Below are positions 8,524 through 57,633 of a stretch of DNA of 64,000 bases, one piece after another. Origin of the DNA: Rhodospirillaceae bacterium (GTDB lineage Bacteria; Pseudomonadota; Alphaproteobacteria; Rhodospirillales; UBA2165). The notes under the pieces are model-generated. The model did not search any database. It worked only from the letters and a program-made list of their open reading frames with translations, and was not told the origin of the DNA. The position numbers and the translations under genes are program-made. Positions within the stretch are counted from its first letter, which is position 1; every line of letters starts with the position of its first letter. The stretch lies in assembly GCA_038127535.1 (NCBI GenBank), contig JAYPHU010000010.1, forward strand, positions 21,786 through 85,785, read 5' to 3'.

Positions 8524-9570
8524 CTAGAACGTATCCACGTCCCCGCCCATAATCCCCCAACTATCGTGATCGAGGATATCCGACTTGAGGTTTGCATCGC
8601 CGAGAGACCGAACAATGAACGGGGCATTTCGATGCCGATGGAACGCCGCACGGCGGAGCACTTTTTCTATTCGCTCAACATTGCACACGGTTTCAAGGAG
8701 CACGGCGCCAAATGCAGATGCCTCTCGAACTACACCGGCAAGAACTGCGGACAGAGCCCTTGGATCTTCTCCTAAAAGTTCAACCAAATGAGCCCGATTG
8801 TCCGCCACCGCTCCCCAGACATCACTCTGCATACCCCAAACGCCAGCGGCCACAATCTCTCCGTGCAACCATGCAGTGACCCAGCGATATTTATTTTCCG
8901 CTTCCGTCGAATATCGCCACCGCATCCACGCGAGGGAACGGTCAACACCGCAGGATGAATGATGATTTTCCCACAGCGACAGCAACGGCTGCAGGTCCTC
9001 GTCCGGCGGTGTTCCGGATTGAATTTCAAACGGGCCGACCCGGCCGGTTGGTAGAACGGCCGCTACCATATCGGCAAGCGGGCCAAGAAGGTCTGGAATC
9101 TTGGGGTGACGTGACGGCTTAATAGGCCGCATCCAGTGCATAACATCGCCGGTATGGCTCCATCCCAGCTTGCGCACAAAACCGGGATAGCTTAACGGAT
9201 TCGGAAACCCGTACATAGTCATGTAGCCTCGGGCCCCCGCAATCTCATAACAGGCGTTTGCCAGCGTTGTGAACACCCCCCGCCCCTGGTAATCGGGATG
9301 CGTCATGGTATCCATGGACTGCGCCCCCAGCATTTTCTTTCCGGCGATCCGCAGTGGCGTCGGCCAAAGCGTGTAAGCGCCGGCCAACCGATCACCATCA
9401 ACGGCCAACGCAACGGGGCAAATTCCTATCGGATTAGATAGATAGCGCCAACGGTCATAGCTTTCGGGGCGGTAATATCCCCAGACATTAAAATAAAGCT
9501 CTCTCAGCGCACCAAAATCGTCAGGCGTCATCTCCCGAAATTTAAGTTCAGAATTTGATTTTGCTGTCAT
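8524..9570 (-). CDS. GNAT-family N-acetyltransferase (two-domain, 348 aa)
   Basis: Acetyl-CoA motif QGRGVFTTLANACYEIA. ATGA overlap with the upstream gene at 9567-9570. Confidence 0.75.
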   Translation of the reverse strand: MTAKSNSELKFREMTPDDFGALRELYFNVWGYYRPESYDRWRYLSNPIGICPVALAVDGDRLAGAYTLWPTPLRIAGKKMLGAQSMDTMTHPDYQGRGVFTTLANACYEIAGARGYMTMYGFPNPLSYPGFVRKLGWSHTGDVMHWMRPIKPSRHPKIPDLLGPLADMVAAVLPTGRVGPFEIQSGTPPDEDLQPLLSLWENHHSSCGVDRSLAWMRWRYSTEAENKYRWVTAWLHGEIVAAGVWGMQSDVWGAVADNRAHLVELLGEDPRALSAVLAGVVREASAFGAVLLETVCNVERIEKVLRRAAFHRHRNAPFIVRSLGDANLKSDILDHDSWGIMGGDVDTF

Positions 9571-11180
9571 CGTTTACCATCAGAAAACAGCACCGAGCGC
9601 CAGACGCTGTAATCGGGTTCTGAAAAAACCGAGTTTGGTCTAATTTTCGGACGATCTGAGGACCCGCACAAAACTCTACCTAAGTTCTGAAATGTTACGG
9701 AGGGGATTTTCAACCCATCTGGTAATATATCCAATGCAATTTTAGTGCTTGGTAGAAATTGGAACGTCGGCAATCCAGCTAAGATAGCCTCCAACCCTAC
9801 CGTCGTAGCGGAATAGACCACTGCTGAGAGCGCCCCTTGATCCTGAAGACGCTTGTTCGTTCTATGAATTCGAGGAGTCCCCATGAAGTAGTACGGGGTC
9901 ATCGGATGGTCCTTGATTAAAACATCCCGGTCTAAATTCGGTAGCGATTCAAAAGCATCAACCATCTCTGCGGAAATATCCCGATCAAACGGTAAGGCCA
10001 CAAAAATGGGCGCAGACTGATCATACGAATGTTTCACATTCGGTAATGTTCGGAGTGCTCCCCCTAACACAACACTCTCCTCTGTGTAGCCCAGTTGCTT
10101 TAACCTAACTTGCGACACGGGTCCGCTCGCTACAATTGTTTCAGGGAAGGTCTTGGCAATACCCTTGTCAGGAGTAGGAAAATAATTCAGTTCCTGTCTT
10201 CCAATAGTAGCATGCTGATAGCCTACCGTCCTGGTGCCGATTTTACGGGCATCACGCACAAAAACGCGCTCCCAGGAATGATTCTCCCAAGGCCATGAGA
10301 CTATTTTTGGCCTAGACTCTTCTAGCCATGCTGATTGACAAATTTGCTGCCAACGAATAATGGCTGGTTGAGCAGTTCCGCTTTCTATCGCTGCAGCTCT
10401 CCGGACGAGCCATCCGTTTGGTCCTGCTAAATCGGATCTTTTAGGTCGCCATTTGACCAATGGAAGCGCTAACGTAGCCATGGGCGCCCCCCATGCATGG
10501 AGACTGAAATTGCGCTTATCGCCTGTCAGTTCCTTGGCGCGGCGCAGACGGCAATCGACGTGAAACACCCTGACGATATTTTCGAACCTCTTCATCATAT
10601 CACCAAAATAACCGTCCTCGCCATCTCGGTTCGCTTGCGGGTGCCCATATACCAGCAAACTAACGGATCCGGCGGGAAACATTTTGCGCTGACCACGCAG
10701 AAAAAGAGAGGAAAAAAACAGTTCCACGGACAAGGCGATCCGTGCCACGTAACCTCGCAAAACCATTCGTAATTTTTGTTTCCATAGTAAGGGCGGTGGA
10801 CCCGCTTTTATTCCCTCAAGGGCTGCCAGGTGGCGATACATCCATGGATCGTCACAAAGAACCGTCACATCTTTATCCTGAATGATCCATTTTTTCACGA
10901 CCTCTGTCCAAGCTAGCATCTGTCCGAAATCCGATGCATTGGCGGCACAGGCAGGCATATGAGCTAAAATGGACGAGGGAACAGATGATAATTTTCGTGC
11001 GGCCGCGATCCATGCATCTTCGATGTCATCGAAGGCTCGGGCCAACTCTTCTGCAATATCTTCGACGAACGGCGCTTTAATCGCCGAAATCGTTGAGGCC
11101 GAAAGGGTTCCGATCGAGCACCATGGTCCGATTATTTTGAGAGACAGTGCCCGTTTCGATGTTACAAGGGTTACCGGCAT
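9567..11180 (-). CDS. Orphan GT-B-like surface-carbohydrate biosynthesis protein (paralog 1 of 3)
   Basis: No family motif recognised with certainty. The C-terminal half has a Rossmann-like pattern with GYQHATIG, VLIKDHPMTPY (K-x-H-P) and SATTVGLEAILAGLP. Trimmed to the ATG at 11180 (MPVTLVTSK...) to avoid overlap with the methyltransferase gene. Confidence 0.6.
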   Translation of the reverse strand: MPVTLVTSKRALSLKIIGPWCSIGTLSASTISAIKAPFVEDIAEELARAFDDIEDAWIAAARKLSSVPSSILAHMPACAANASDFGQMLAWTEVVKKWIIQDKDVTVLCDDPWMYRHLAALEGIKAGPPPLLWKQKLRMVLRGYVARIALSVELFFSSLFLRGQRKMFPAGSVSLLVYGHPQANRDGEDGYFGDMMKRFENIVRVFHVDCRLRRAKELTGDKRNFSLHAWGAPMATLALPLVKWRPKRSDLAGPNGWLVRRAAAIESGTAQPAIIRWQQICQSAWLEESRPKIVSWPWENHSWERVFVRDARKIGTRTVGYQHATIGRQELNYFPTPDKGIAKTFPETIVASGPVSQVRLKQLGYTEESVVLGGALRTLPNVKHSYDQSAPIFVALPFDRDISAEMVDAFESLPNLDRDVLIKDHPMTPYYFMGTPRIHRTNKRLQDQGALSAVVYSATTVGLEAILAGLPTFQFLPSTKIALDILPDGLKIPSVTFQNLGRVLCGSSDRPKIRPNSVFSEPDYSVWRSVLFSDGKR

Positions 11181-11235
11181 GAAATGATAGCGTCGGCGCT
11201 TAAGACGGAAACTGGTTTCGTAAACGCTGTAGCGT

Positions 11236-11931
11236 TTAGCGTGAAATTTGCCACGTACGCGTGATAATCTCGGGGTAGGGTGAAACGGCGAACTCAGAAA
11301 CTCCATGCCTGTATCCCCGCTGCTCAATTCTGTCAGCGTCGGCGAACATGGATTCGATCACCTCCAAGGCATCCGCTTCATTTATGATATTATAAGGCAA
11401 AACTGTGGCGCCAGCAGCTATCTCGCTGCGCGAAAAATCGGTTCGGAAATAGGAGATGGCTTTATCTTCAACGGTCTCCTCTTCCGTCTCACGCAAATCG
11501 AAAATTAGGTTTCTTTCGGTGAATTGCCACGCCAAAGCAAGTGTTTCCTTCCAAACCTCATGCAAGTGAAGTATTCCGAGGCAAAGTACGAGGTCGAAAC
11601 GGGCATCGTTCAAAATCGATAGGTCTGCCTCGTCGACCTTATGAAACGAGTGCTGAGGAAACTTTTCACGAGCCAGATCAATCATCCGTTGGTTAATATC
11701 AACACCTGTATAACTGAACCGTCGAATATTTTCGGATATTATCCCGGCAAATCCGCCCTGGGCGCACCCGACGTCAAGAACGCTCACGCCTTCTTTGAGG
11801 TTGTCCTTTAAGAAGAACCATTCCGATGGATAGACGTCTTCTGTCTTAAGCCGGTGGTGGTCGAAATAGTTCAACGCATCGGGAACGCCCCAAGCGCGAG
11901 CATTACCTAGCCTATTCCTTCGTACAGTCAC
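11236..11931 (-). CDS. Class I SAM-dependent methyltransferase
   Basis: Motif I VLDVGCAQGGFAG. GTG start. Confidence 0.8.
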   Translation of the reverse strand: MTVRRNRLGNARAWGVPDALNYFDHHRLKTEDVYPSEWFFLKDNLKEGVSVLDVGCAQGGFAGIISENIRRFSYTGVDINQRMIDLAREKFPQHSFHKVDEADLSILNDARFDLVLCLGILHLHEVWKETLALAWQFTERNLIFDLRETEEETVEDKAISYFRTDFSRSEIAAGATVLPYNIINEADALEVIESMFADADRIEQRGYRHGVSEFAVSPYPEIITRTWQISR

Positions 11932-13101: not shown

Positions 13102-13875
13102 TCAATACTGACCCCACAATGCGTCTTCACGGATGTGCGATTCGACGCGTTCGATATCGTCTGGACTATCCACAGAAAAACTGGGTTGGTAGGCAATGGG
13201 GGCGATATATTGATGGTATCCGTTATCATAAAGGCGATTCGAATCACACGCTTCTTTTAGCTCAAGGGGGCTTTCCGGAAGTTTGGTAAACAGTTTCAGA
13301 AAATGCCAACGGAAGCCGAAAATTCCATAGATTCGCTTGGCGCCAAGTTCCGGCGAGAACATACCGGGCTTGCAATGAGGGATCGGCTGGCGGGATGTGT
13401 ATAAGATGCGGCCGTCGAGATCGTGAATAATTTTAAGAATATCCGGGTTTTGATACTGCGCGTCGTCGACGATATTCATGGCGAGCACGGTGCCGTTGAT
13501 ATCCGCGCGCGCCTCCATCGGCTTGATGGTCGCTGCGATCATATCCGGATACATCATGGGTTCATCCCCTTGGACGTTAAGAACGATATCGCCGTCGCCA
13601 ATACCGACCCCGCAATTCTCGGTCGCTTCCGCAACCCGGTCGAGGGCCCGCGTATGCGTGTCCGCCGTCATAATAACGGGGTATCCTTTCGATTCGGCAA
13701 ATTCTCGGATTTCATCGTCGCAAGTCGCCAGGAACAATCCATCCCAACGATCAAATAGTTTTGCACGTTCGAAAACGTGTTCGATCATCGGCCGGCCGCA
13801 AATCGGGTGAAGGGGTTTGCCGGGAAACCGGCTGGCCGCCATACGGGCCGGAATTATGCCAATGATTTTCGTCAT
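13102..13875 (-). CDS. KdsB/KpsU-like 3-deoxy-2-ulosonate cytidylyltransferase (paralog A, 257 aa)
   Basis: IIGIIPARMAASRFPGKPL and NVQGDEPM motifs of CMP-Kdo synthetase-type enzymes. Confidence 0.8.
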   Translation of the reverse strand: MTKIIGIIPARMAASRFPGKPLHPICGRPMIEHVFERAKLFDRWDGLFLATCDDEIREFAESKGYPVIMTADTHTRALDRVAEATENCGVGIGDGDIVLNVQGDEPMMYPDMIAATIKPMEARADINGTVLAMNIVDDAQYQNPDILKIIHDLDGRILYTSRQPIPHCKPGMFSPELGAKRIYGIFGFRWHFLKLFTKLPESPLELKEACDSNRLYDNGYHQYIAPIAYQPSFSVDSPDDIERVESHIREDALWGQY

Positions 13876-13943: not shown

Positions 13944-15464
13944 TCAAAAGACCATATAAATAAAGTCGTTGGAGTGAGACCCCTTTGCGACAACCACCAA
14001 CAGTCCGATTAAACCGAACACGCTGACCAGAGGAACTATCGCACTACGTGGAAACAAGCGGTGGCCAGCGTCCCGTTCAATGCACGCTGCCATTATCTCT
14101 CTAGTATTCGGCAATACCAAAACGAATATTCCCAAACAAAACAGAACACCCAATGTCCCATATTGATATGGAAGTGTTTCAGAAAACTGAACCCCGACAG
14201 ACGTAAGCACAGTCGAGCCGTCATCGAACAACGCGCGCCAGGAAGCCGGCAGAATCAAGCCGTTCAAACCTATCATACCCCGTAACGTCGCAATCGCATC
14301 GGACCAGCTTTCCGCTCGGAAGAACACCCAAGTCACAACAACCGCAAGCAAGGTGATGGTTCTGGAGACGGCGCGCCCAAACCAAGAAGAACGATTCAAC
14401 TCTAAGCCCAGTGCTTTGCGGCCTTCACGCCACAAATGATTGATGACGATAAATACGCCATGAAGGAAACCCCAGAATACGAACGTCCATGCGGCGCCAT
14501 GCCACAAACCGCCGAGAAGCATTGTAATTAAAATATTCAGATAGCGCCGTTGCGTGCCGTTTCTATTGCCGCCAAGCGGGATATAAAGATAATCCTTTAG
14601 AAATCTTGAAAGCGTCATGTGCCAACGCTGCCAAAACTCAATAATACTTTTCGCCTTGTAGGGCGAATTGAAGTTCTCCGGCAACCGGATGCCAAACATT
14701 CTGGCCAGACCGATTGCCATATCTGAGTAACCGGAGAAATCAAAATAGATTTGGAATGTATAAGCGAGAGTTCCGACCCAGGCCTGGATCATGGTCGGAT
14801 CCTGGCCGGAAATATTTTGAAAAAAGTTCTCCGCGTGTGCACCGATACCATCGGCGATAACAACCTTCTTCTGGAGCCCGATAATGAATATCGCCACACC
14901 TGAAAAAAATTCCGAAACGTTGAATTGTTTGGTGTCGCGCGCCTTGAATTGGGGAATAATTTCCTGGTGGTGAACAATAGGGCCGGCAATCAACTGAGGA
15001 AAGAAACTGACAAACAGGACATAGTCCAGAAGACTGGTATCCGTTACGTAGCCTTTGTGAACGTCCACCAGATAGGCAATTTGCTGGAAAGTAAAAAACG
15101 AGATTGCCAAAGGTAGGATGATTTCCGGCGACGGCAGGGAGGCGGCGAATACCGTGTTAACTGAACCGACGAAGAACCCGAAATACTTGAACACCCCGAT
15201 TATTGCCAGATTGAAAACGACCCCGGTGATTAAGAGGGGTCTCGATCTACGCGACATCAATGCCCGGCCAATCAGATAGTTGACGAGAATCGATCCGAGC
15301 AACAAAGTCAGATATGGGGGATTCCAATAAGCATAAAAAAATAGGGAACAGACCGCGAGCCATCCGAAAACAGTCGTCCGCCCAGTATACCGCGCCACAA
15401 AAAGATAAACGCCAAATACGATCGGTAGAAATATGAAAACGAATGACTCTGAACTAAATAACAC
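13944..15464 (-). CDS. MBOAT-family membrane O-acyltransferase (AlgI/DltB-like)
   Basis: WQRWHMTLSRFLKDYLYIPLGGNR and LLGGLWHGAAW (conserved His) in a polytopic protein. GTG start overlaps the upstream stop by 1 nt. Confidence 0.9.
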   Translation of the reverse strand: MLFSSESFVFIFLPIVFGVYLFVARYTGRTTVFGWLAVCSLFFYAYWNPPYLTLLLGSILVNYLIGRALMSRRSRPLLITGVVFNLAIIGVFKYFGFFVGSVNTVFAASLPSPEIILPLAISFFTFQQIAYLVDVHKGYVTDTSLLDYVLFVSFFPQLIAGPIVHHQEIIPQFKARDTKQFNVSEFFSGVAIFIIGLQKKVVIADGIGAHAENFFQNISGQDPTMIQAWVGTLAYTFQIYFDFSGYSDMAIGLARMFGIRLPENFNSPYKAKSIIEFWQRWHMTLSRFLKDYLYIPLGGNRNGTQRRYLNILITMLLGGLWHGAAWTFVFWGFLHGVFIVINHLWREGRKALGLELNRSSWFGRAVSRTITLLAVVVTWVFFRAESWSDAIATLRGMIGLNGLILPASWRALFDDGSTVLTSVGVQFSETLPYQYGTLGVLFCLGIFVLVLPNTREIMAACIERDAGHRLFPRSAIVPLVSVFGLIGLLVVVAKGSHSNDFIYMVF

Positions 15465-16483
15465 TATGGCAGGTTCTTTGTCGTGTGTAACAGTTGCCAG
15501 GCCAACGCTTTCGCCGCAAGTTCATGCCCAACTGGCCGCCAATGGCCGTCATTTACAAAATGATATCGCATCGGGTTTCCATCGCGCTCCTGTACACGAC
15601 GCATATCGATATAATTTAATCCGGAACGCTCAAGGGCTAGAATCAAAGCGTCGTGAATTTGACGTTCAGACGCTTGGTTGTTGCCAATCCACAATCCACG
15701 GCTCGGTATCACCATGATCACAACCCGATAAGTCTCAGCGATTTTTTTAAGGCTGTTCAGCGTGGATTTTACCGCCCGCCTATCAAGATCTCGCCGATGT
15801 ACCTCCGACAAAGGAACAATAAGCCCGACCTTAACAGCAATGGCGCGAAACCATTGAATTCGGCCCAAAACCGACGTCGCCAAAAAATAAAGGCTGGAAT
15901 GCTCCAATAAAAACCCCTTAACGGTGTTCAAGTTGAATAATGTCCCCGGCGGCGGACGCGCCGCTTCGGATCGGACAACGGGCTTTACAGCGGCAATGTC
16001 GTAATCGTTGATGTCGTCGTACATGTTCAAAAGGATAATTACGTCTTTGGCGGCCGAGCCACGAGCACGCGCGTACCGTAACAATTTATCGTATCCAGGA
16101 ACATCGGTCGGTACAGCAACATTGAAGACTCGCCGACCGATCAACTTTTCCAACCGTTCCGATACCCGATCCTGTTGTTCCACACCCCAACCGAATGCGA
16201 AAGAATCCCCAACCAGGATGACATCTTTGTCGGTTGCCGTGCTTAAATCTTTTAAATCTCGCAGTCCATGCTCGTTAAAAACAACTGACACGTTGTAATC
16301 GCCCGAATTTTTTACCTGACGGAAATGGCCGTTAGCGGGCCCGAGAACAGGTAAATCCGGCTTCTCCGGATTAAATCGTAAATGGTTGTTGGGATTATAA
16401 TCGGGCAGCGTAAGACGGACGCCTAACTCCTGTATAATTAGCGCAAGCGCAACTCCACAGAACCCCAGCGCCAACCTACCCAA
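15464..16483 (-). CDS. SGNH/GDSL-like acyl-transfer partner of the MBOAT (AlgJ/AlgX/PatB-like role), N-terminal membrane anchor
   Basis: Block I LVGDSFAFGWG. Block V-like FVNDGHW. N-terminal hydrophobic anchor. TTG start. Confidence 0.7.
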   Translation of the reverse strand: MGRLALGFCGVALALIIQELGVRLTLPDYNPNNHLRFNPEKPDLPVLGPANGHFRQVKNSGDYNVSVVFNEHGLRDLKDLSTATDKDVILVGDSFAFGWGVEQQDRVSERLEKLIGRRVFNVAVPTDVPGYDKLLRYARARGSAAKDVIILLNMYDDINDYDIAAVKPVVRSEAARPPPGTLFNLNTVKGFLLEHSSLYFLATSVLGRIQWFRAIAVKVGLIVPLSEVHRRDLDRRAVKSTLNSLKKIAETYRVVIMVIPSRGLWIGNNQASERQIHDALILALERSGLNYIDMRRVQERDGNPMRYHFVNDGHWRPVGHELAAKALAWQLLHTTKNLP

Positions 16484-16497
16484 AAGTACCGAGTTTC

Positions 16498-17541
16498 TCA
16501 GTTTACCGAATCCCCGAAATCACATTGACGAGCCCAATCAGGATCGGCCCGGTAGATTCGATCAACCAATTGCATCGTCCGTAATGCATCGTCGGATGAG
16601 CCGTTGATGATTTCGCCGCCTTCGATAATCGCCGTCGCAAACTCATCGATTTCACTGGACCAGGAAGGATCGCTCTCATAACAGGTTGTCACTTCCTTTG
16701 GATCACCTTGGTCGTCTTCGGCGGCGTAGGCGACGGTCATTGTTTCATCACCATAACTCTTGGATCCCGATAATATCCCGGACAAGGTAACAGCTCCTTT
16801 TTCAAGAGTGATATCCAGTTGGAACATGTGCTTCCATTGCGTGGCCGACGAGTGAAGCATGGCGACGACACCATCTGAAGTACGCATCAACGCATAAGCG
16901 TTATCTTCGACATCATGCTTCCAATAATCATTGCTGACGAAACTATGAATTGTTTCGAATTCGCCGGCGAACAACCGCATTAAATCGACCATGTGGATTC
17001 CTTGGTCCAACAGGATTCCGCCACCGGCAACGGCTTTTTTAGTACGCCAATCGGAATGTTGCCCGAAGCTGATAAATTTTGATTTTCCGTATACACCACG
17101 CAGGTTCATGACACGCCCTAGTTCGCCGGAGGCAACGATATTGAGCGCATCCTGGACGGAGTCGTGATAGCGGTGGTTAAAACCGTATTTCAGCTTAAGC
17201 GTGGGCTGTTTTGCTTCGACTGCGCGAACACGGATAACGTCTTCCACCGTCCGGCCGGGCGGCTTTTCGCAAAACACGTGAATACCGCTCTCGAGACCGG
17301 CGATGGTCACTTCAGGCGCGATGTCATTCGTCATACACACGAATAACGCATCGAGATCTTCGCCAATAAGGTCCTGATAGTTTTTGAATTTTTTCAAACT
17401 CCTGCCGGATAATTCGGAATCTGAAGAATTACGATCACAAACGGCAACAGTAACGAGATCCGGGTGCTGGTCGATAAAATGATGGCGCCGTTTGCCGACA
17501 ATGCCATAACCGGCAATTCCTACGCGCAAAGGCTTTGTCAT
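16498..17541 (-). CDS. Gfo/Idh/MocA-family NAD(P)-dependent oxidoreductase
   Basis: VGIAGYGIVGKRR Rossmann start and VFCEKPPGRT (EKP motif). Confidence 0.85.
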   Translation of the reverse strand: MTKPLRVGIAGYGIVGKRRHHFIDQHPDLVTVAVCDRNSSDSELSGRSLKKFKNYQDLIGEDLDALFVCMTNDIAPEVTIAGLESGIHVFCEKPPGRTVEDVIRVRAVEAKQPTLKLKYGFNHRYHDSVQDALNIVASGELGRVMNLRGVYGKSKFISFGQHSDWRTKKAVAGGGILLDQGIHMVDLMRLFAGEFETIHSFVSNDYWKHDVEDNAYALMRTSDGVVAMLHSSATQWKHMFQLDITLEKGAVTLSGILSGSKSYGDETMTVAYAAEDDQGDPKEVTTCYESDPSWSSEIDEFATAIIEGGEIINGSSDDALRTMQLVDRIYRADPDWARQCDFGDSVN

Positions 17542-18632
17542 AGTATTTTCTGGATTCGGTAGAGATCCGAAATCGCCTCGTTGGCGCGTCCGAGCCGCGT
17601 CGACTCACCATCGGAATCGGGATGAATCCAATTACTTTCCTCATCGGACCGATAAAAAGCGTGTAGGAGTTTTAAGCTCCCCAGGCAATCCTCTCGGCTG
17701 ACCGGGTATTCGGCTCCCTCCCGAAAATGTCGGACGATATCGCGGTACATCTTTTCGTGCCCGTTTCCATAAACACTGAAACCGAAATCCTCGGAGTTGG
17801 CCTCGCAAGCCGACGGATCAGGCGTAAAGACCTGAAGCTCGTTGACTGCAATTCCTCCCAGTTGAGCCAACCCCTCGGATCCGACGATACTGAGCGATGC
17901 CTCGAAATCGTCTGGGCGAGCGGCAGTGGTGACTTCAAGGTTCCCGACGGCGCCGGACGCATAGGTAAACGTCGCCACCACCGTATCCTCGGCTTCGATA
18001 TCGGCGCCAAGGGTTCGCATGGTCGCGCTTACTTCCTCAATTTCACCGCCGAGATAACGAAGTAGGTCGATATGATGGATTCCCTGGTTGGTAAGCGCGC
18101 CACCGTCGTGGGACATGGTTCCACGCCAGGGCGCTAAATCATAATATCGTTGTGGGCGGCACCAGCGGGTGCGCACACCGACGACTCTGATCTCGCCCAA
18201 CTCGCCCTGCTCGAGGGCTCGCCTAACGCGTTGAACAGCCAGGTTATAGCGGTTTTGAAAAACGGGAAAAATTTTAACCCCGGCTTTATCGGCGGCGGTA
18301 CTCGCCCGCAACAAGTCACTCGGTTTTAGAAATGTCGGCTTCTCGACGATAATATTCTTTCCATAAAGCTCGATGATTTCCAGGCCGTGCTCGAAATGCA
18401 TACCCGAGGGCGTTATGACGGCAACCGTATCGATCTCCGGATGATCGCGGAGCATCTGGTGATAGTTGGTGTAATGACCAGCGCTAAATTCATTGGCGTA
18501 ATTTTCAGCCTTCTCGGAAACCAGATCGCAAACTGCAATTAGATTCGCGTCATCGACCATATCGATGGCGCGTGCGTGCTGTCCGGCAATCCGCCCGCAT
18601 CCGATTAAAGCGATGTTTATTGACTTTAACAA
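17538..18632 (-). CDS. Gfo/Idh/MocA-family NAD(P)-dependent oxidoreductase
   Basis: IALIGCGRIAGQHARA and IIVEKPTFL. ATGA overlap at 17538-17541 with the downstream paralog. Confidence 0.85.
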   Translation of the reverse strand: MLKSINIALIGCGRIAGQHARAIDMVDDANLIAVCDLVSEKAENYANEFSAGHYTNYHQMLRDHPEIDTVAVITPSGMHFEHGLEIIELYGKNIIVEKPTFLKPSDLLRASTAADKAGVKIFPVFQNRYNLAVQRVRRALEQGELGEIRVVGVRTRWCRPQRYYDLAPWRGTMSHDGGALTNQGIHHIDLLRYLGGEIEEVSATMRTLGADIEAEDTVVATFTYASGAVGNLEVTTAARPDDFEASLSIVGSEGLAQLGGIAVNELQVFTPDPSACEANSEDFGFSVYGNGHEKMYRDIVRHFREGAEYPVSREDCLGSLKLLHAFYRSDEESNWIHPDSDGESTRLGRANEAISDLYRIQKIL

Positions 18633-18640
18633 AGGGGCTC

Positions 18641-19852
18641 CTACTCTTTTTCTACTGCTGTATTCCCCATGAGGCGCGAGCGCACACGTTGGACGGTATT
18701 GCGGATAGGGTTTTGAAGGTTTTCCGGTAGTTTGACGAGTGTCTTACGTGCATGATCTTTCGCCATGAAAAACGCTAAATTATTGTTACTGCGCCGATGC
18801 AAAATCAGGCTCTGTCGAAGAATTTTCAAAGACACTTCAGAATCAACCAGACCACGTTCCGTTACCTTAACGATGCTGCGGTCGATTTGTGCAAACATTT
18901 CGTCAAATTGGTCATGATCAAATTTTAGGTAATTTTTCTGGAAACCTAACGAATTGTCCGGATTTGCGACCAGATTGATATCCGGTTCGGCATCATACTT
19001 CAGTCCTAAGGCAACGAATCGTTCGATTTCTTCACAGTTGACTCGGTTCAGCGTCATGCTGATAGAAAATTCAAAATCCGTTTTGTTTTTTCTTTGCTTC
19101 AACCATTCGAGATTTTCGAGCACCTCGTTCCACGAAGCTTTTCGCCCACGAAGACGCAAGGCATCAAAACTTTCTTCGGTCGCGGCATCCAGCGAAACCG
19201 CCACGCCGAGCAACTCCTTGGTTGCCAGAATAGCCTTAACCCGCTCGGTAAACAAAGTCGCATTCGTAATAAAGTAATATTTACACCCGTCGGTCAGTTG
19301 ATCATTTTCCATAAAGTCCAGAACCGGGCGGTACAAGAACGGTTCTCCACCAAACGGGAGTACGACTTGAAAATGCGGAGACATTTCGGTGATCTGCTGC
19401 ATAAATGACGCTGGCAGCTTGAGCCGCATCAACGCGTCGTCGCGCTGATAACAGTGATAACAATCGAGATTGCAGGCATAGCTATAGGCAAAGCGCATCC
19501 AACGGGGTTTCGATTCTAGGGTTGTGAGCCGCTGATCGAACTCGATCTCGTTCTGGGCCGCATTCTGACGTGCTAGGCTTTGTGTGGGTAAGTCTTCGTA
19601 CCAACTCAGATTCCGATATCGTTTTCCGCCCTGTAGAATGGGGCAGGTGTGTGGGCACAACAAATGGGCGCCCTCATTAGCCATCTTTTTGCGTATACTC
19701 TGGAACCTTTCACCGTTCCAGATGTCTTCCACGGAACCCTCGTTGACATTTCCCAACACGGTCGCGTTGTCGCAACACATGGTTACGTTGCCATTGGGAT
19801 TATTTACTTCAAAGTGAGTCCAAGGATGGTCGCAAACGAATTTATTTTTCAT
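18641..19852 (-). CDS. Radical SAM enzyme with an N-terminal twitch/SPASM-like Cys domain
   Basis: C7-x13-G21-x4-C26C27 ... LGNV ... EDIWNG ... C66-x3-C70 precedes the core cluster motif C127-x3-C131-x2-C134 (YACNLDCYHC). Confidence 0.8.
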   Translation of the reverse strand: MKNKFVCDHPWTHFEVNNPNGNVTMCCDNATVLGNVNEGSVEDIWNGERFQSIRKKMANEGAHLLCPHTCPILQGGKRYRNLSWYEDLPTQSLARQNAAQNEIEFDQRLTTLESKPRWMRFAYSYACNLDCYHCYQRDDALMRLKLPASFMQQITEMSPHFQVVLPFGGEPFLYRPVLDFMENDQLTDGCKYYFITNATLFTERVKAILATKELLGVAVSLDAATEESFDALRLRGRKASWNEVLENLEWLKQRKNKTDFEFSISMTLNRVNCEEIERFVALGLKYDAEPDINLVANPDNSLGFQKNYLKFDHDQFDEMFAQIDRSIVKVTERGLVDSEVSLKILRQSLILHRRSNNNLAFFMAKDHARKTLVKLPENLQNPIRNTVQRVRSRLMGNTAVEKE

Positions 19853-22905: not shown

Positions 22906-24102
22906 TCAATCGATTTCCCGAAAGTACGGTAAAGTAAGTGGGTCACCTGCCAAAACACGGAAGAAAAGTCCGTAATAATATCGAACGCGCCGGATATACG
23001 CGTAACCGGCGGCGATAACCGCATGAAATTTCCCCCTACTCAGACAATTGAATAAATAAACGGGGCTGACGAACCGTAATTCGTAGGTCGTAGGCAAGGG
23101 GATCGCAAAAAAGGAAAGAGCTCCGTGAATGAATAACGGCCTGTGTTTTCGATCAAAGCCGCAATGATCGAGTCTATTTTTTAATATGAAGTCGAGAACG
23201 AATTTTTCCGTCCCGAGAAGTTTCTGCTGCCAGTTATTGCTTCTAATCCGGCTCGTAAACTCCCGCTCATCCATACCAGGCTCTCCCTGCACGGGAGATA
23301 AATTATCGCCCCACCATCTTAGGCCGGCCCATGTTGATTTCATTACGCACGGATGAAATTCAACGCCAAGCCAGCAGCAAAGCGATCGCAAGACGGACTC
23401 GTTTGACAAATCCTCCATCCGCATAACTCGGAACCGGTCGGCAAGCGCAAACAGCGGTGCAGGATCGTCGATCAATCGTTTTAAGGCGAGGCGTGGAAGC
23501 GACGGTTCATCGATCAATTTTGCTTCTCGGAGAACCTGTTCCATTTTGGAAACGTATGCCGCACGTGGATCTCTCGTCGTGGCTATCATTTTGCTTTGCG
23601 GAAAATCTTCGAAATACGGGTCCAGCCGGCTGATGTCATGGATATGGTGAAAGAATACTTTCTTGATCATCGGATCTTGCCCAAGCGCCAACGCATAGGA
23701 AACGTAAACGGCCGATAAAACGTTTTTTCTCGTTACCGCCCGATTTTTAAAAAGGGCTGCCATATGGCCTTTAAACGCTGGAATATCGATACTAATCGAT
23801 TGATCCATGCTCTCGCCCAACCGATCCTTCCGTTCGACGACATCGTATTTCGACCGGAATTTGTCGATATGGCTGCCGATAAATTCTTGGGTGATATCTT
23901 CGATATCTAAATATTCGGAGCAGACGGTGCTTTTAGCGTTCTGCCAAAACTCGTGAAAAAATAAAATCCCATTGAAATTGAATATTTCCGGATGAGAGTC
24001 GAGCTGGCTTTGCAATGCGTCGCTCCCGGCCCGCCCCGTAGCCACCAGCCCGCACCAACCGCAACGATCAACATGAGCCCAGATTTGATCATAGTTTATC
24101 AC
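22906..24102 (-). CDS. Putative PAPS-dependent sulfotransferase
   Basis: 5'-PSB-like ATGRAGSDAL and 3'-PB-like TTRDPRAAYVS. GTGA overlap with the APS kinase stop at 24099-24102. Confidence 0.6.
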   Translation of the reverse strand: MINYDQIWAHVDRCGWCGLVATGRAGSDALQSQLDSHPEIFNFNGILFFHEFWQNAKSTVCSEYLDIEDITQEFIGSHIDKFRSKYDVVERKDRLGESMDQSISIDIPAFKGHMAALFKNRAVTRKNVLSAVYVSYALALGQDPMIKKVFFHHIHDISRLDPYFEDFPQSKMIATTRDPRAAYVSKMEQVLREAKLIDEPSLPRLALKRLIDDPAPLFALADRFRVMRMEDLSNESVLRSLCCWLGVEFHPCVMKSTWAGLRWWGDNLSPVQGEPGMDEREFTSRIRSNNWQQKLLGTEKFVLDFILKNRLDHCGFDRKHRPLFIHGALSFFAIPLPTTYELRFVSPVYLFNCLSRGKFHAVIAAGYAYIRRVRYYYGLFFRVLAGDPLTLPYFREID

Positions 24103-24647
24103 TCGCCACCGGCCTCCACGGTGAAATCTGGAAGCGCCACCCTTAACCGCGGCACGGCCATTGCCACCTCCCGAGCCATTTCCACCGGCGAACGCCGATT
24201 ATCCGCGTCCAAAACCATGTCTGGGTTGACCGGCTCATGCCACTCGATATCCATGCCCACGACATTGCCCATTTTCCCATCCCGAGCCTGCGCGTAGAGA
24301 GCCTTGGTATCCCGCGCTATCACGGTATCCAGAGAAGCGTGAAGATAGACTTCGAAGTAGTCGTCTAGATTGGTCCTGTTCCAGTCCAATAAATCGGCAT
24401 TGCCGTATAGGACGGCAACAATAACGACCAACCCCTGCTCCGCCAGAACCTTCGACATGGCCTGTAAGCGCCCAACCTGCAAAATCCGATCCGTTTCGGA
24501 ATAGCCGAGGTTATGCCCAAAGGCAGCCCGAACGATATCGCCGTCCAGAATGACGAGTTCAGGAAGCCGAGGCTTTAAGAGATCTCGCAACGCCGAACAC
24601 AGCGTCGTTTTACCGGCCCCGGAAAGGCCCGTGATCCATACAATCAT
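24099..24647 (-). CDS. cysC: Adenylylsulfate (APS) kinase
   Basis: MIVWITGLSGAGKTT P-loop, LDGDIVR, YSETDR. Confidence 0.9.
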   Translation of the reverse strand: MIVWITGLSGAGKTTLCSALRDLLKPRLPELVILDGDIVRAAFGHNLGYSETDRILQVGRLQAMSKVLAEQGLVVIVAVLYGNADLLDWNRTNLDDYFEVYLHASLDTVIARDTKALYAQARDGKMGNVVGMDIEWHEPVNPDMVLDADNRRSPVEMAREVAMAVPRLRVALPDFTVEAGGE

Positions 24648-29637: not shown

Positions 29638-30597
29638 TTAACCTTTTGACGAAATCGTACCCTTCGGCACGATCCTTTCAAATTTCTCCCAGGCCTCGAC
29701 ATGGTCCGAACCCATTAGGGTTCCTTTTACGTCACACAATCTGCATGGCCCGAAATCTCGGTCTGCGGCGGCTAACCGTTTCCGCGCGATTCTCATTCGG
29801 CGTCCGGCCCAGATCTCCAGGAAATTCGATTCGTTCATGTTCCCTACCACGAGCATTTTTCCCCAATCATGAGGGCACATTAAAACGTCGCCCGTATAAT
29901 CCATAAAAAAGGTGTAGTGAGGGTAATTACACGCGGCCTTGATTGGCTCGGGTGGTGTATCAATCGAGTACTCCGCCGAATCCATCATTCCTGCCCGGTT
30001 ACTTAATGTAATGCCAAAGTCCTGTTCCGGTGGCAAATACCGTTTTCGAATGACGAACTGATGGGAATCCAGCCCTTCATCGCGACACAAATTTTCGAAA
30101 CGTTCCACATCCTCGGGGCCGTCATAGACGCTTATCAGAAGCGTCGAAAGACCGTTTTCAAATAACAGTTTTAGGCGTTTAGCGTCGAGAACGTCCCCAT
30201 TGGTGACAAGCTCCAGACGAACTTCGGGAAGGTTTGAACGGACAATTTTAAGTAGGTTAAAAATATTCTTATCAAGTAGTGGCTCTACAAAACCGGAAAA
30301 TAGAAATATGCCTTTGTAATTTAGTTCCGCGAGTTGCCGAACTAGCTTTTCGATAAGCTCGTCGGAAATGAACTCCTTCACGTCGGGGAAGGCTGGGGCG
30401 CTTCGCGGGCAAAACGAGCAGGTTCGATTACATGTTCCGGACTCGCTGATTTCAACCACCGAAGGCAACGGCACCTTATCGCCATGAAATGTAAGGTTTT
30501 CGTCAACGATCGACGACTTCCTTTTTATGGAAGGATCGAGGAAAGTTTTGCCCCTGTTGGTTCTCACGTTCATGGCGTCTAATTCGTTAGTTTTCAA
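29638..30597 (-). CDS. Radical SAM enzyme with canonical C-terminal twitch/SPASM-like domain
   Basis: SGTCNRTCSFCPR (CxxxCxxC). C-terminal C-x12-G-x4-C (CNYPHYTFFMDYTGDVLMC) ... LEIW ... CRLC. The track start is TTG (TTGA overlap). An ATG at 30573 is the alternative. Confidence 0.8.
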   Translation of the reverse strand: MKTNELDAMNVRTNRGKTFLDPSIKRKSSIVDENLTFHGDKVPLPSVVEISESGTCNRTCSFCPRSAPAFPDVKEFISDELIEKLVRQLAELNYKGIFLFSGFVEPLLDKNIFNLLKIVRSNLPEVRLELVTNGDVLDAKRLKLLFENGLSTLLISVYDGPEDVERFENLCRDEGLDSHQFVIRKRYLPPEQDFGITLSNRAGMMDSAEYSIDTPPEPIKAACNYPHYTFFMDYTGDVLMCPHDWGKMLVVGNMNESNFLEIWAGRRMRIARKRLAAADRDFGPCRLCDVKGTLMGSDHVEAWEKFERIVPKGTISSKG

Positions 30598-32342
30598 TGA
30601 AGCCGATCAAGGATCTCACATTTCATATCCCGTGCAATATCGCCGTCAACAACTTCGCCCATAGACTTACCCGACAGATCGATAAGCCCTGCCAATTGTT
30701 GAGTGGGGTAATACCATGTACCGGCCTCAGCCTCGCGAATGCGTTTGGCCGCCGTGGCGGAGTCTTTGACACATATGTCAGGAATCTCACGAAACATCGC
30801 TGTCGGCTGAAACGATGCTGTATCAAGCGCGAATGCCTGCATACCGAGCTGGGCCGCCTCGAACAATACGGACGAAGGGTCCGAAAACGCATATTTGCCT
30901 TTAAACATCAGGTCGTAGACGGGTTCGGTCGTGTATCTCACGTTTGGACGGCCGGCACTGCATTTTTCGACTAGCCGATCGCCGATTTCGCTTTCGTTCA
31001 TAACGCGCTTCACCTGCAGATAAACGGTTCTCTCGGGAAACGCCGCCGACAGGCCCCGCACAATATCGACAACGTCATCATGGTCCGAAAAGACGCCAAT
31101 AAAAAACACGATGTCGTTAGGCTTCGGCCTAAGCCGGTTTTGAAGTTGTGCATCTGTTAAACTATGGCTGGCGGCACCGATAACCCCCATATCCGCAGGC
31201 CAATGATCCCGGTAATGCCTCTCATAATGACTTGGGCCATATACGTAAAAGCGGTCAAAACTAACATAGCGCAAATGCGGAAATAGGTCGCAGTAGACGG
31301 GTATGCCGTCGGACATTCCGAACGACTTCGCACCTATTTTTTTTAGTTCTTGGTGCCGAAGAATATGATCGACATTGTAAGGGTCGCGCCCCCAAAAATA
31401 CCGCGGCCGGAACCTCAATACCAACCCTCTGATCTGAACACGCTTTTGCGCCAAATTCACTATCCAGAAAAAAAGACTCGGAGGAAAGTAACGGCCGGCC
31501 CTAGCCAAATCCCATGTATGCCGAATAAATTCGTCGAGATAACTCAGGGTGTCCGCAAGGCTAAACCTGCCGTCACGCCGCTCACAAACCGCCACCGGAT
31601 CCAGGCCATCAAGCTTGCTGCGGTCAACCGGCCCCATTCGCCCGACCAAAACGATATCGCCCCACCGGCGCAGGGCTTTTAGCATCGATATGTCTCTGGA
31701 ATCTTCCATATGGTCGGTCGCCATAAAGACGTCATTCAATCTTTCAACTTTCAAGCGCGTCCGCGATAAAATAAATAACACTCCCCGTACAACAACCATC
31801 ACGGCAATCAAGGCATTCACCATCATCCTTGGCAGGGATTGACGCATCTTGTCGGACGCAGACCCCGGTGAGGCGTATTCCCGGCTCATCGCCAGAAGAT
31901 CTTCGGGAACACCCACATTCTTCGCGGAATTCAACTCCTTGTCGGCAAACAGCTTCGAAAGGAGCAACGCCTCGACTTGGCGGTCCCAACTCAGTTGGCA
32001 GACCGCCTTTCGGGCCGCCATGGCATAATCCGGTATTTGGCGGTCTAGCCGCTCAAACTCGTAATACCGTTCGAGCCAGGGTTCGACGATGCGAAAAATG
32101 TCATAAAGTAAGACACTGGGCGGATAGAGCATCACCATCTTAAGTTCCGGATAACGTTTGCCCAGATCCCTTGCCCAACCTCGGCTCTTAGCCCATTGCG
32201 CCAAGGATTCGAGCAACCGTTGGCTTGGCCCAAAAGCCCCGTGGACCGATAAAATCAAGGGCGACCGCCTGAAAGCGACTTCCAACAGAAATCTCGGACA
32301 ACTTGATTCCGTTAGCCGGATGACAACTGGATTACGCGACAT
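30594..32342 (-). CDS. Orphan GT-B-like surface-carbohydrate biosynthesis protein (paralog 2 of 3)
   Basis: 582 aa with no motif I can assign. The C-terminal half is patterned like the 9567 and 35986 proteins (FGMSDG..., GPSHYERHY, FFIGVFSD..., SSVLFEAAQLGMQAF). Confidence 0.6.
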   Translation of the reverse strand: MSRNPVVIRLTESSCPRFLLEVAFRRSPLILSVHGAFGPSQRLLESLAQWAKSRGWARDLGKRYPELKMVMLYPPSVLLYDIFRIVEPWLERYYEFERLDRQIPDYAMAARKAVCQLSWDRQVEALLLSKLFADKELNSAKNVGVPEDLLAMSREYASPGSASDKMRQSLPRMMVNALIAVMVVVRGVLFILSRTRLKVERLNDVFMATDHMEDSRDISMLKALRRWGDIVLVGRMGPVDRSKLDGLDPVAVCERRDGRFSLADTLSYLDEFIRHTWDLARAGRYFPPSLFFWIVNLAQKRVQIRGLVLRFRPRYFWGRDPYNVDHILRHQELKKIGAKSFGMSDGIPVYCDLFPHLRYVSFDRFYVYGPSHYERHYRDHWPADMGVIGAASHSLTDAQLQNRLRPKPNDIVFFIGVFSDHDDVVDIVRGLSAAFPERTVYLQVKRVMNESEIGDRLVEKCSAGRPNVRYTTEPVYDLMFKGKYAFSDPSSVLFEAAQLGMQAFALDTASFQPTAMFREIPDICVKDSATAAKRIREAEAGTWYYPTQQLAGLIDLSGKSMGEVVDGDIARDMKCEILDRLH

Positions 32343-35985: not shown

Positions 35986-37926
35986 TTATTCCTCTGCGGT
36001 CGACATGAGGTTGGAGACGACCTCCCACGTACGGCGCGCCGGATTCGGAATTTCTCCAAGCGCTGCGTGGTTTTCTATCAAGGCGCCAAAATCTGGAAAA
36101 TGCTCCGATTTGACCGCTTCGGCGATTTCATCCACGTCTTCATAAAACGAGCTATCCGCAAGATAATCACGATTGACTGCACTGTGTTTAAAAACGACCG
36201 GAAAATACGGTTTTCCCGCACCGAGAACCTCGATCATTGCGGCTGATACCGCGGGGCCGATTGCGATATCGGCCCAGGCAAGAGATTCCGAAAACGGTTC
36301 ATCTTTCCGGATGTTGATGTCTAAATCATAGTAATCGGCGATCGTAGCGTAATAGGCTTGGTTATAAGGGCCTGGATGGATTTTCAACTGAATCTCATAT
36401 TCGCCGCTTTCAAAAAGTTTGCGGACCAAGTTAACCGTAAAGTCGTACTGCATGGCCTGTGGACACAAGTGATCTTCACCAGTTGGAACAAATTGCAGAA
36501 GGAGAATGCGTTTTACCTGGTCAGGTTCCATCGCTTGATAGCCGGCGCTAACCGCCAAGGGATTTCCTGTTCTAATTTGGCCAACCGGCGAGCCCATATT
36601 GTCGAGCCATTTTTCGTTTGCAATGCCCCAGGTAAAAAACCAATCGATCGGAGAGGTGACGCGGGAATCAGCGCCGAGAATACTCATTTTGACGTCTTGG
36701 ATATATTGCCCGTGCCAAGTTGCAATGGTCTTTATGCCTAATTTCCTCCCTACGGTATAAAGAATGTGCCCCAAATAATAATCGAGTCCGTCTGACAAAA
36801 GCATCCGCGGTTGAAGCATATTTAATAGGGATTCGATATGCTTAACTTCACGTGCCATTTCCCCCAAGCGGCCCGTGGATATGATATTTTTGATCGCGTA
36901 TTCAAGGATCAGCTTGAAACGATCGTCTTTTGGCCTATCTGCTAACCGGGTCAATTCTTGCTCGATCACGAGGACCCGCGCTTGATCGCCTTTGGTAAGG
37001 TTGGGTATTGATGAATTAATTGGAACCACACCGCGAATTAGGTTCCGAAAGGTCCACCGCCACTTCAATTTGTTCGGCAGCCAAGGAGCATAAATGCATG
37101 CAAAAAAGTCGCTTTGATCAAAGGCCGAGATAAGTGGCATTGAAGTAAGCTGGGTGGAGGCAACCAAAATACGTGGCTTAGTCGGATTTATGGATAACCG
37201 AAGGCGTCCCACAATACCCCAAATTGTGACCAAAGAAGACTGCAGGCCATTAATAAACGTGTTTTTCAGTTTTGGTTTTGCGGGCGGTCTCCATTTGTAG
37301 TCTGCCGAAAACGGGAGGTTGGGATCGTCATCATCCGGCGGATCGCTCGCATCTATTGTTTCGATTGAATGGCGATCCGACACCGTTTCTACCAATTCCA
37401 ACCTGGCTTTTGTATCGAGGAGGTTATGCTCAGCACGAAAATCGACAAATATAATTTGGCGGGGTGAATAACGAGCGATCATGGTTTCGAGCGCTCTCAC
37501 CAATCGATCGTATTCCTGGTTGATGAGGGAAATTTCCCTTGAAAACCTCGCTCCTAAAGATACACCCCGGAACTCGGTCGGATCAGGTCCATCCGAATAG
37601 AGCCAATCATTGACCTTCACAAACATATCGGAACGCTGGTCCAAATCGGCACGATTTATACTTTCTGCCTCGTAGTGAACGCAGTGGCGGCCTTCGGCAA
37701 TCGCCTGCTGCCAAAGAAGCCACCCATGCGCGACCAGCAAGATACTGTCATCGAATGGATCAAACTTGGAGAAATGCCGAGGGTGCGACACCAACGCCAA
37801 GCATGAGTAACGTTCTCGCATATAATCCGGGTTCTGGCCGAATTGGTACAGAACAGGTTTACTTCGACTACTCGTATCGATGAGTGATCGCTGTGCATTC
37901 CCGACCGAATCGTTTTTCATGAACAA
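35986..37926 (-). CDS. Orphan GT-B-like surface-carbohydrate biosynthesis protein (paralog 3 of 3)
   Basis: 646 aa. C-terminal half has ATWHGQYI, IQLKIHPGPY (K-x-H-P) and AAMIEVLGAGKP, patterned like the 9567 protein. Confidence 0.6.
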   Translation of the reverse strand: MFMKNDSVGNAQRSLIDTSSRSKPVLYQFGQNPDYMRERYSCLALVSHPRHFSKFDPFDDSILLVAHGWLLWQQAIAEGRHCVHYEAESINRADLDQRSDMFVKVNDWLYSDGPDPTEFRGVSLGARFSREISLINQEYDRLVRALETMIARYSPRQIIFVDFRAEHNLLDTKARLELVETVSDRHSIETIDASDPPDDDDPNLPFSADYKWRPPAKPKLKNTFINGLQSSLVTIWGIVGRLRLSINPTKPRILVASTQLTSMPLISAFDQSDFFACIYAPWLPNKLKWRWTFRNLIRGVVPINSSIPNLTKGDQARVLVIEQELTRLADRPKDDRFKLILEYAIKNIISTGRLGEMAREVKHIESLLNMLQPRMLLSDGLDYYLGHILYTVGRKLGIKTIATWHGQYIQDVKMSILGADSRVTSPIDWFFTWGIANEKWLDNMGSPVGQIRTGNPLAVSAGYQAMEPDQVKRILLLQFVPTGEDHLCPQAMQYDFTVNLVRKLFESGEYEIQLKIHPGPYNQAYYATIADYYDLDINIRKDEPFSESLAWADIAIGPAVSAAMIEVLGAGKPYFPVVFKHSAVNRDYLADSSFYEDVDEIAEAVKSEHFPDFGALIENHAALGEIPNPARRTWEVVSNLMSTAEE

Positions 37927-44207: not shown

Positions 44208-44208
44208 T

Positions 44209-57129: not shown

Positions 57130-57633
57130 TCATAGACAAGCGACGACGTTTTCGCTGTGTGTCGTAACTCGAGTTTGGCGGCCTAAAATATTCAACAATA
57201 TAACAACGCGGTCTTCGTCACATTCGCTTTCAAAAACTCCAAATTGGTCAGCCAATGAGCCATTGAGAATTCGCACTTGGTCACCTGGGCTCCGTGGCAA
57301 AAAGCGATCGAGGCGGATGACACCGGAACTGTCCTCATGTAGTTTAATATCATCGATAAGGTCTTCCGGAATTGGAGCGGGCCCATGGTTATGACAAACG
57401 ATGTGACTTACTCCGAATGTAGAATTGATGGCTCTCCAATTGGAACCAAAAATATCGATTTTTACAAATAGGTATCGGGGAAACAAAGGCGCTTTAACTT
57501 TCTCAACACGCCGGGCATGGCGGCGCATTTTGAAATAACGAGGCAGGTAGACCTCAATATTTTGGCTCATCAAATTGTAGTTCGCCTTCGTCTCACTGCG
57601 AGGTTTTGTATGAACGGCATACCAATTCTTCAT
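57130..57633 (-). CDS. rfaH: RfaH-like NusG paralog (operon-specific transcription antiterminator)
   Basis: MKNWYAVHTKPRSE, APLFPRYLFVKID, FGVSHIVCHNHGPAPIPEDLI. KOW-like PGDQVRILNGSLADQFGVFE ... RVVILLNILGRQTRV. It is collinear by eye with E. coli RfaH. Confidence 0.8.
   Translation of the reverse strand: MKNWYAVHTKPRSETKANYNLMSQNIEVYLPRYFKMRRHARRVEKVKAPLFPRYLFVKIDIFGSNWRAINSTFGVSHIVCHNHGPAPIPEDLIDDIKLHEDSSGVIRLDRFLPRSPGDQVRILNGSLADQFGVFESECDEDRVVILLNILGRQTRVTTHSENVVACL

Follow-up and report, generated by a model that had tools for sequence, protein, structure and literature searches.

The stretch of DNA analysed here, referred to as the window, comprises 64,000 nucleotides from a Rhodospirillaceae bacterium (contig JAYPHU010000010.1, positions 21,786 to 85,785). 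On its minus strand lies a gene for a radical S-adenosylmethionine (SAM) enzyme of 403 residues in which a twitch domain stands ahead of the radical SAM core. A second radical SAM gene in the window has the canonical order. Conservation was examined in two alignments of homologues, A1 (27 sequences, at least 51% identity) and A2 (66 sequences, down to about 20% identity), and an AlphaFold2 model of the protein was built on A2. The features concerned are as follows.

18641–19852, minus strand: twitch-first radical SAM gene (open reading frame including the stop codon, ATG start, 403 residues)
19643–19834, minus strand: N-terminal twitch domain, residues 7–70 (C7, G21, C26, C27, C66, C70), from the Pfam SPASM match, the BtrN match and the model
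19505–19642, minus strand: linker, residues 71–116, with helices 83–87 and 93–106, leading to barrel strand β1 (AlphaFold2 secondary structure)
18968–19504, minus strand: radical SAM core, residues 117–295, six β-α units (PF04055 and the AlphaFold2 model)
19451–19474, minus strand: C127-x3-C131-x2-C134, predicted motif of the SAM-cleaving [4Fe-4S] cluster, read from the sequence and invariant in A1 and A2
18644–18967, minus strand: C-terminal helical extension, residues 296–403, five helices in the AlphaFold2 model
29638–30597, minus strand: second radical SAM gene, canonical order, called product of 311 residues

The N-terminal region of the 403-residue protein reads C7-x13-G21-x4-C26-C27, LGNV at 33–36, EDIWNG at 42–47 and C66-x3-C70, and C127-x3-C131-x2-C134 lies downstream of it. 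This motif, the position of CxxxCxxC and all Cys spacings agreed exactly with those given in a preliminary description of the window, according to which a SPASM/twitch-like domain precedes the core. The Pfam coordinates upheld that order. SPASM (PF13186) matched residues 7–70, at profile positions 1–66 of 67 (E = 1.6e-12; 48 bits against a gathering threshold of 21.5), and Radical_SAM (PF04055) matched residues 125–280 (E = 3.4e-17; 63.5 bits against 29.5). Both matches are far above chance. The twitch motif CX9-15GX4C is thus present as C7-x13-G21-x4-C26, but the domain precedes the core instead of standing C-terminal to it. The aminotransferase gene upstream ends at 19878, and K4, F5 and C7 are kept in at least 90% of the A1 homologues; the N-terminus is therefore not an artefact of the gene call.

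The cysteines of the protein encoded at 29638–30597 run C56xxxC60xxC63, then C223-x12-G236-x4-C241 and then C285xxC288, and Pfam placed Radical_SAM at 54–166 and SPASM at 223–289. This is the canonical order, so that both topologies occur in one cluster, as had been proposed. Like the twitch-first protein, its product consists of a core and a twitch and is encoded in the same gene island, and the two twitch domains share 34% identity over 58 residues. It differs in having the core first, and in a four-Cys twitch with a single Cys after the hairpin.

That the N-terminal region is a homologue of the SPASM/twitch domains, as the preliminary description had suggested, was seen in several ways besides Pfam. 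In the best BLASTP alignment of the pair, residues 4–58 aligned to residues 220–276 of the 29638–30597 protein at 34% identity (E = 7e-7). Positions 3–73 of the NCBIfam profile N_Twi_rSAM likewise matched residues 221–292 of that protein. When the first 118 residues were compared with all PDB sequences, the twitch domain of BtrN was the only match below E = 0.01; query residues 18–66 aligned to BtrN 179–232, with the Cys after the hairpin and the Cys after the helix in register. The family profile also detected, weakly, the C-terminal twitch of SkfB among the PDB sequences. The AlphaFold2 model (mean predicted local distance difference test score, pLDDT, 94.5; predicted template modelling score, pTM, 0.91; N-terminal blocks at pLDDT 85–98) contains a β-hairpin (13–16/22–24) followed by a helix (48–60), with C7 ahead of the hairpin, C26 and C27 just past it, and C66 and C70 past the helix. 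The SkfB paper (PMC6231123) describes the same placement for the Cys ligands of the BtrN twitch, namely ahead of the hairpin, past it and past the helix. Since Pfam, the BtrN match, BLASTP to the neighbour and the model are four independent lines that agree, the N-terminal domain is a genuine twitch domain.

BtrN (2-deoxy-scyllo-inosamine dehydrogenase; PDB 4M7S and 4M7T), the prototype twitch enzyme, shares with it the succession of Cys, hairpin, Cys, helix and two Cys. It differs in that its twitch follows the core, its final pair is C-x2-C and not C-x3-C, and it has no CC doublet; the whole-chain match had an E-value of 3e-4.

The best NCBIfam match was NF033640 (N_Twi_rSAM, "twitch domain-containing radical SAM protein"; 105.8 bits, E = 2.7e-30), with residues 4–300 colinear with profile positions 2–315. 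The twitch lies before the core in this family, as it does in the 18641–19852 protein, and all 66 members of A2 match the model (best E-value 2e-46). An annotated family with this order thus exists, while the function that the preliminary description had coupled to it does not, because NF033640 is without one. The RefSeq protein WP_221067113.1, from plasmid pRS11DPr1 of Methylomagnum ishizawai, scored 174.4 bits against the NF033640 cut-off of 170. It has SPASM at 32–94 followed by Radical_SAM at 140–299, and its gene neighbours are a glycosyltransferase, AsnB and UbiA. It resembles our protein in the order of twitch and core and in belonging to a glycan or lipid gene cluster; our protein differs in being only about 25% identical to it, in having a C-terminal helical extension of its own and in belonging to a clade restricted to Rhodospirillales. 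A search of plasmids gave three homologues, one of them a bona fide N_Twi_rSAM, and a phage collection gave no homologue of the 18641–19852 protein.

In a search of 5.8 billion proteins there were 255 matches; among the 120 of these that were listed, all were about 400 residues long and 53–100% identical, with PF13186 ahead of PF04055. A HMMER scan of 1.84 billion representatives clustered at 50% identity gave 11,631 matches at E ≤ 1e-3, 1,578 at E ≤ 1e-10 and 29 at E ≤ 1e-30. The best 150 of the 11,631 were scored with separate hidden Markov models for the twitch (T) and the core (R), and their architectures were distributed as follows.

TR: 103 of the 150
RT: 13 of the 150
RTRT: 9 of the 150
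TRTR: 4 of the 150
RTR: 2 of the 150
TRT, TRRT and RTRTRT: 1 of the 150 each
R only or T only, mostly fragments: 16 of the 150

Many TR modules were embedded in fusion proteins of 500–1600 residues. The RTRT proteins were P0139, P0152, P0156, P0164, P0175, P0182, P0217, P0222 and P0266; the RTRTRT protein was P0242, and the TRTR proteins were P0134, P0159, P0172 and P0177.

Twitch-first is therefore a widespread and diverse architecture. The claim about the architecture stands, but the rarity implied in the preliminary description does not, since 103 of the 150 nearest representatives have this order. The 18641–19852 protein, which falls in a divergent Rhodospirillales clade, is an uncharacterised member of a catalogued and common architecture, and not the discovery of a new layout. 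In our literature searches no paper was found that discusses N-terminal twitch or SPASM domains in their own right, or NF033640; the literature searched treats SPASM and twitch as C-terminal extensions, and the SPASM domain is C-terminal in the GMGT synthase paper as well. The RadicalSAM.org paper mentions members of the SPASM/twitch megacluster with extra conserved Cys N-terminal to the barrel and states that none of these has a structure (PMC9477430).

As to the core, the protein belongs to the radical SAM enzymes by its invariant CxxxCxxC, its PF04055 match and the six β-α units of the model (strands 118–122, 163–167, 191–196, 214–220, 261–268 and 289–294). The SAM-binding GGEP motif at 168–171 is invariant in A1. 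From the cluster motif, C127, C131 and C134 would bind the SAM-cleaving [4Fe-4S] cluster, and a reductive cleavage of SAM to the 5'-deoxyadenosyl radical is predicted. Residues 296–403 gave no Pfam match and no family assignment; H352, N357 and P376 in this extension are conserved within the clade (A1).

The model was compared with the PDB by Foldseek, in which alignment is sequential in chain order. The matches (BlsE, viperin, SuiB, CteB, SkfB, MoaA, DesII and anSME) covered the core only, mostly over 190–270 columns, with a TM-score normalised to the query of at most 0.42. BlsE, viperin, MoaA and DesII were among the best core matches by Foldseek and profile search, and their nucleotide-linked substrates fit a sugar-nucleotide role; they differ from our protein in that only about 190–260 core columns align, again at TM-scores of at most 0.42, and in the absence of an N-terminal twitch. 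A profile search of the PDB matched the twitch in BtrN and SkfB only, downstream of the core in both, and no solved structure with the twitch first was found by Foldseek or by sequence and profile searches of the PDB. To our knowledge, all SPASM and twitch enzymes of known structure have the auxiliary-cluster domain after the barrel. GDGT-MAS/Tes (PDB 7TOL and 7TOM) is a radical SAM enzyme of known structure in which an auxiliary [4Fe-4S] domain precedes the core. It differs from our protein in that this cluster is held by C73, C77, C80 and a His and the domain is not described as SPASM or twitch; moreover, GDGT-MAS has retained a SPASM-like domain at its C-terminus, and its substrates are lipids.

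The pTM of 0.91 says that, in the model, the twitch is docked with the barrel as one body. In canonical enzymes the partial barrel has a lateral opening flanked by β1 and β6, and the SPASM or twitch domain closes it. Because both of these strands border the opening, the same docking site should be reachable from either chain end. The N-terminal twitch would accordingly close the lateral opening of the partial barrel, a site within reach of both ends of the core chain.

The twitch of the nearest RT relatives shows the five-Cys signature too, with the CC doublet and the two-Cys motif (C-x3-C) after the helix. The gap between twitch and core is about 35 residues in most of the twitch-first representatives listed, and in the RTRT fusions P0266 and P0164 the T-to-R gaps are 40–58 residues, which is close to this TR linker of about 35. 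In a neighbour-joining tree of 147 core domains, the TR and RT cores fell in two largely separate blocks. Signature, fusion gaps and core blocks fit, as a hypothesis, a permutation by duplication with one or few origins. The twitch-first order would then most likely have come about when a core-twitch gene was duplicated in tandem and the outer domains were lost, with the tandem two- or three-unit radical SAM-twitch fusions as possible intermediates.

The order might also have arisen by independent domain shuffling, with the twitch at another site or serving a partner subunit, so that no structural permutation is involved. The many twitch-first modules found inside large fusions speak for a mobile module of this kind. 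However, the twitch-to-core linker stays at about 35 residues in most listed representatives, the pTM of 0.91 indicates one rigid body, the twitch-first cores keep largely to a block of their own, and the five-Cys signature is shared by the nearest core-first relatives. Shuffling is therefore unlikely, though not negligibly so.

To ascertain how many auxiliary clusters the domain is likely to hold, the conservation of its cysteines was compared in the two alignments. In A1, C26, C27, C66, C70 and the CxxxCxxC cysteines were invariant, and C7 was present in at least 90%, being lost in the N-terminally truncated P0011. In A2, C7, C26, C70, C127, C131 and C134 were invariant, and C27, C66 and G21 were each kept in at least 90%. 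No Cys of residues 296–403 was conserved in A1. Of the 107 twitch-first domains, 98 keep the CC doublet after the hairpin, as do most of the nearest core-first relatives; BtrN and the 29638–30597 protein lack it. The codon of C27 lies at 19772–19774, and C27 might donate a hydrogen atom or serve as an alternative ligand.

Five conserved Cys in about 65 residues are what suggests a twitch and one cluster, rather than a SPASM domain; judged by the sequence, they point to one auxiliary [4Fe-4S] cluster and not two. C7, C26 (or C27), C66 and C70 would bind this cluster, leaving it fully ligated. The "SPASM-like" label of the preliminary description thus holds for the homology but not for the domain type, which is a five-Cys twitch with one predicted cluster and not a full SPASM. 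A full SPASM domain with two auxiliary clusters, in which His, Asp or the substrate replaces the lost ligands, is nevertheless suggested by the name of the matched Pfam model, by the likeness of C66-x3-C70 to the end of CX2CX5CX3C, by the fifth conserved Cys, C27, and by H68, which is conserved in the close clade. But H68 is not kept across the wider family, the length of about 65 residues is that of a twitch, and there is no conserved Cys in residues 296–403 to supply further ligands. Five conserved Cys compare with seven or eight for SPASM (PMC6231123; PMC9477430), and of the seven-Cys motif CX9-15GX4C-gap-CX2CX5CX3C-gap-C, the domain lacks the CX2CX5 part and the last Cys. We regard two clusters as improbable.

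For the function, we turned to the gene context in 30 related loci that hold a homologue, found with alignment A1. The neighbours that recur are the following.

17538–18632, minus strand: GFO/IDH/MocA oxidoreductase, directly downstream of the twitch-first gene with an 8-nt gap; 23 of 30 loci, mean identity 50%
16498–17541, minus strand: second GFO/IDH/MocA oxidoreductase, overlapping the first by 4 nt; 23 of 30 loci, mean identity 63%
13102–13875, minus strand: KdsB-like cytidylyltransferase (putative cytidine monophosphate (CMP)-ulosonic acid; NF003952, 213.6 bits against a cut-off of 193); 23 of 30 loci
9567–11327, minus strand: TIGR04326-like protein (surface carbohydrate biosynthesis, weak), the called gene of 537 residues being shorter than the maximal open reading frame; 25 of 30 loci

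The first oxidoreductase is weakly similar to IolG and to UDP-GlcNAc 3-dehydrogenase. The gene at 9567–11327 is the neighbour most often found with the twitch-first enzyme, and its product is a candidate transferase or polymerase. A methyltransferase lies near the homologue in 16 of the 30 loci, as does an ABC exporter (16 of 30), and a homologue of the canonical-order 29638–30597 protein is co-located in 1 of 30. The close clade was seen in Alphaproteobacteria only, nearly all assigned loci being from Rhodospirillales (metagenome-assembled genomes of Rhodospirillaceae and Magnetovibrionaceae, Phaeospirillum and Caenispirillum bisanense). A 40%-identical homologue (loci L007 and L008) lies beside genes for CTP_transf_3, an HpcH/HpaI aldolase, a 2-hydroxyacid dehydrogenase (2-Hacid_dh) and an HAD phosphatase, and the 54%-identical P0088 (locus L006) has the same four neighbours. 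This gene set looks like an ulosonic-acid pathway.

On the strength of the conserved GFO-GFO-KdsB context and these ulosonic-acid-like gene sets, we propose that the enzyme carries out radical chemistry, its substrate being a sugar or an ulosonic acid. It would tailor an intermediate in the synthesis of a flagellar or surface glycan, such as a sugar acid resembling Kdo (3-deoxy-D-manno-octulosonic acid) or the precursor of such an acid. The 5'-deoxyadenosyl radical would abstract a hydrogen at a carbinol carbon of the substrate, and the substrate radical would either be oxidised via the auxiliary cluster, as in a BtrN-type dehydrogenation, or lose the neighbouring hydroxyl, as in a dehydration. 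The two co-transcribed GFO/IDH/MocA oxidoreductases would process the keto product, and the KdsB-like enzyme would make the CMP-activated sugar. A BtrN-type oxidation of alcohol to ketone may be suggested by analogy, from the twitch homology and the oxidoreductase context, and the carbohydrate-like substrate of BtrN is in line with the proposed sugar role. An adjacent HisC-like aminotransferase had also been considered as a conserved functional partner, in the way that BtrS serves BtrN, and was dropped, being found in 2 of the 30 loci.

Most of the radical SAM-SPASM enzymes studied so far act on peptides, and an enzyme maturing a ribosomally synthesised and post-translationally modified peptide (RiPP), instead of modifying a sugar, would agree with the weaker NCBIfam matches to PapB, DynA, StsB and MftC and with the presence of SkfB and SuiB among the structural matches. 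The PapB, DynA, StsB and MftC matches cover only the core, however; no RiPP recognition element or precursor-like small open reading frame was present among the called genes of the neighbourhood, and the context was carbohydrate biosynthesis in every locus inspected, so that a role in peptide maturation is very improbable.

Hardly credible is an unrelated metal module (a zinc ribbon or a rubredoxin-like fold) that mimics the SPASM motif: short Cys-rich motifs may match by chance, and GDGT-MAS does have non-homologous N-terminal rubredoxin and [4Fe-4S] domains, but in profile searches the region matched SPASM over 66 of 67 positions (E = 1.6e-12), the isolated domain found the BtrN twitch as its sole PDB sequence match, BLASTP joined it to the neighbour's twitch (E = 7e-7), the model has the hairpin and helix, and the non-Cys signature G21, G34-N35, W45-N46 and R54 is conserved, which rules out a zinc ribbon at the sequence level.

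The best explanation as a whole is therefore that of a genuine twitch domain placed before the core by permutation, with one predicted auxiliary cluster and a proposed role in sugar tailoring. Taking domain order, clusters, function and origin together, we give it a probability of roughly 0.7. Several observations weigh against it. The score of 105.8 bits is below the curated NF033640 cut-off of 170, so that the family threshold is missed. Five Cys are conserved, C27 among them, where four would suffice for a [4Fe-4S] cluster. The neighbour-joining tree of the 147 cores is a rough one. The adjacent HisC-like aminotransferase, which would suit an oxidation-transamination pair of the BtrN/BtrS type, occurs in only 2 of the 30 loci. 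Finally, no characterised twitch-first member was found, and reaction and substrate rest on gene context and analogy.

A more far-reaching statement would be that the twitch-first enzymes are true circular permutants with their cluster at the Aux I site, and that the Rhodospirillales clade, together with its two GFO partners, acts on a CMP-activated Kdo-like ulosonic acid by a radical reaction so far undescribed (a deoxygenation, an epimerisation or an oxidation), the product serving to decorate flagellin or some other surface structure. We hold this to be conceivable but doubtful.

The analysis confirms and places the gene, in a layout that is common and already recognised by NCBI. The twitch-first set is of interest as a natural test of whether cluster position or chain connectivity is what matters for catalysis, and it may offer a clear case of a metalloenzyme permuted by duplication. 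The module of radical SAM enzyme, two GFO oxidoreductases and KdsB in glycan islands of marine Rhodospirillales may point to new sugar chemistry.

The window as a whole (1–64000) is a single minus-strand glycan island of more than 50 co-directional genes. It resembles an island devoted to the glycosylation of flagellin or of the cell surface in a marine member of the Rhodospirillales. Its further genes include the following.

57636–58385, minus strand: HTH (helix-turn-helix) protein
57130–57633, minus strand: NusG paralogue, with the island downstream of it
53815–54972, minus strand: DegT (nonulosonic-acid gene)
46389–47567, minus strand: Epimerase_2, a NeuC-like epimerase (nonulosonic-acid gene)
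45284–46414, minus strand: NeuB (nonulosonic-acid gene)
44209–45267, minus strand: CBS-NTP (nucleoside triphosphate) transferase (nonulosonic-acid gene)
41476–42878, minus strand: HisH/HisF-like (nonulosonic-acid genes)
39505–40548, minus strand: Maf-type MptE-like gene
24099–24647, minus strand: APS (adenosine 5'-phosphosulfate)-kinase-like gene, overlapping 22906–24102 by 4 nt
22906–24102, minus strand: 398-residue protein weakly similar to sulfotransferases (PF13469; its 24.8 bits fall short of the gathering threshold of 27)
13944–15464 and 15464–16483, minus strand: MBOAT (AlgI-like) and AlgX/AlgJ-like pair, present in 7–8 related loci

Three CTP_transf_3 genes, methyltransferases and an ABC transporter are also present. 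The island holds four radical SAM genes, at 37975–39474, 51420–53480, 29638–30597 and 18641–19852. Two of them encode B12-binding proteins of 499 and 686 residues, and the others are the canonical twitch protein and the twitch-first protein. For a sugar cluster, this is an unusual density of radical chemistry.

The pair of APS-kinase-like and sulfotransferase-like genes suggests a sulfated glycan. An MBOAT gene paired with an AlgX/AlgJ-like gene is typical of polysaccharide O-acetylation. Genes for an ABC transporter, an APS kinase and a sulfotransferase-like protein are likewise found together in related loci. Four large proteins of about 460–650 residues are without a Pfam domain (9567–11327, 30594–32342, 35986–37926 and 42885–44273). 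The gene at 61120–63864 continues past the end of the window on the source contig, where its product reaches 1297 residues and contains a Ribul_P_3_epim domain; next come the genes for an IspD-like NTP transferase (59570–61120) and a GT2 (glycosyltransferase family 2) protein. The genes of 59570–63864 may form a module for ribitol phosphate or a similar polyol phosphate.

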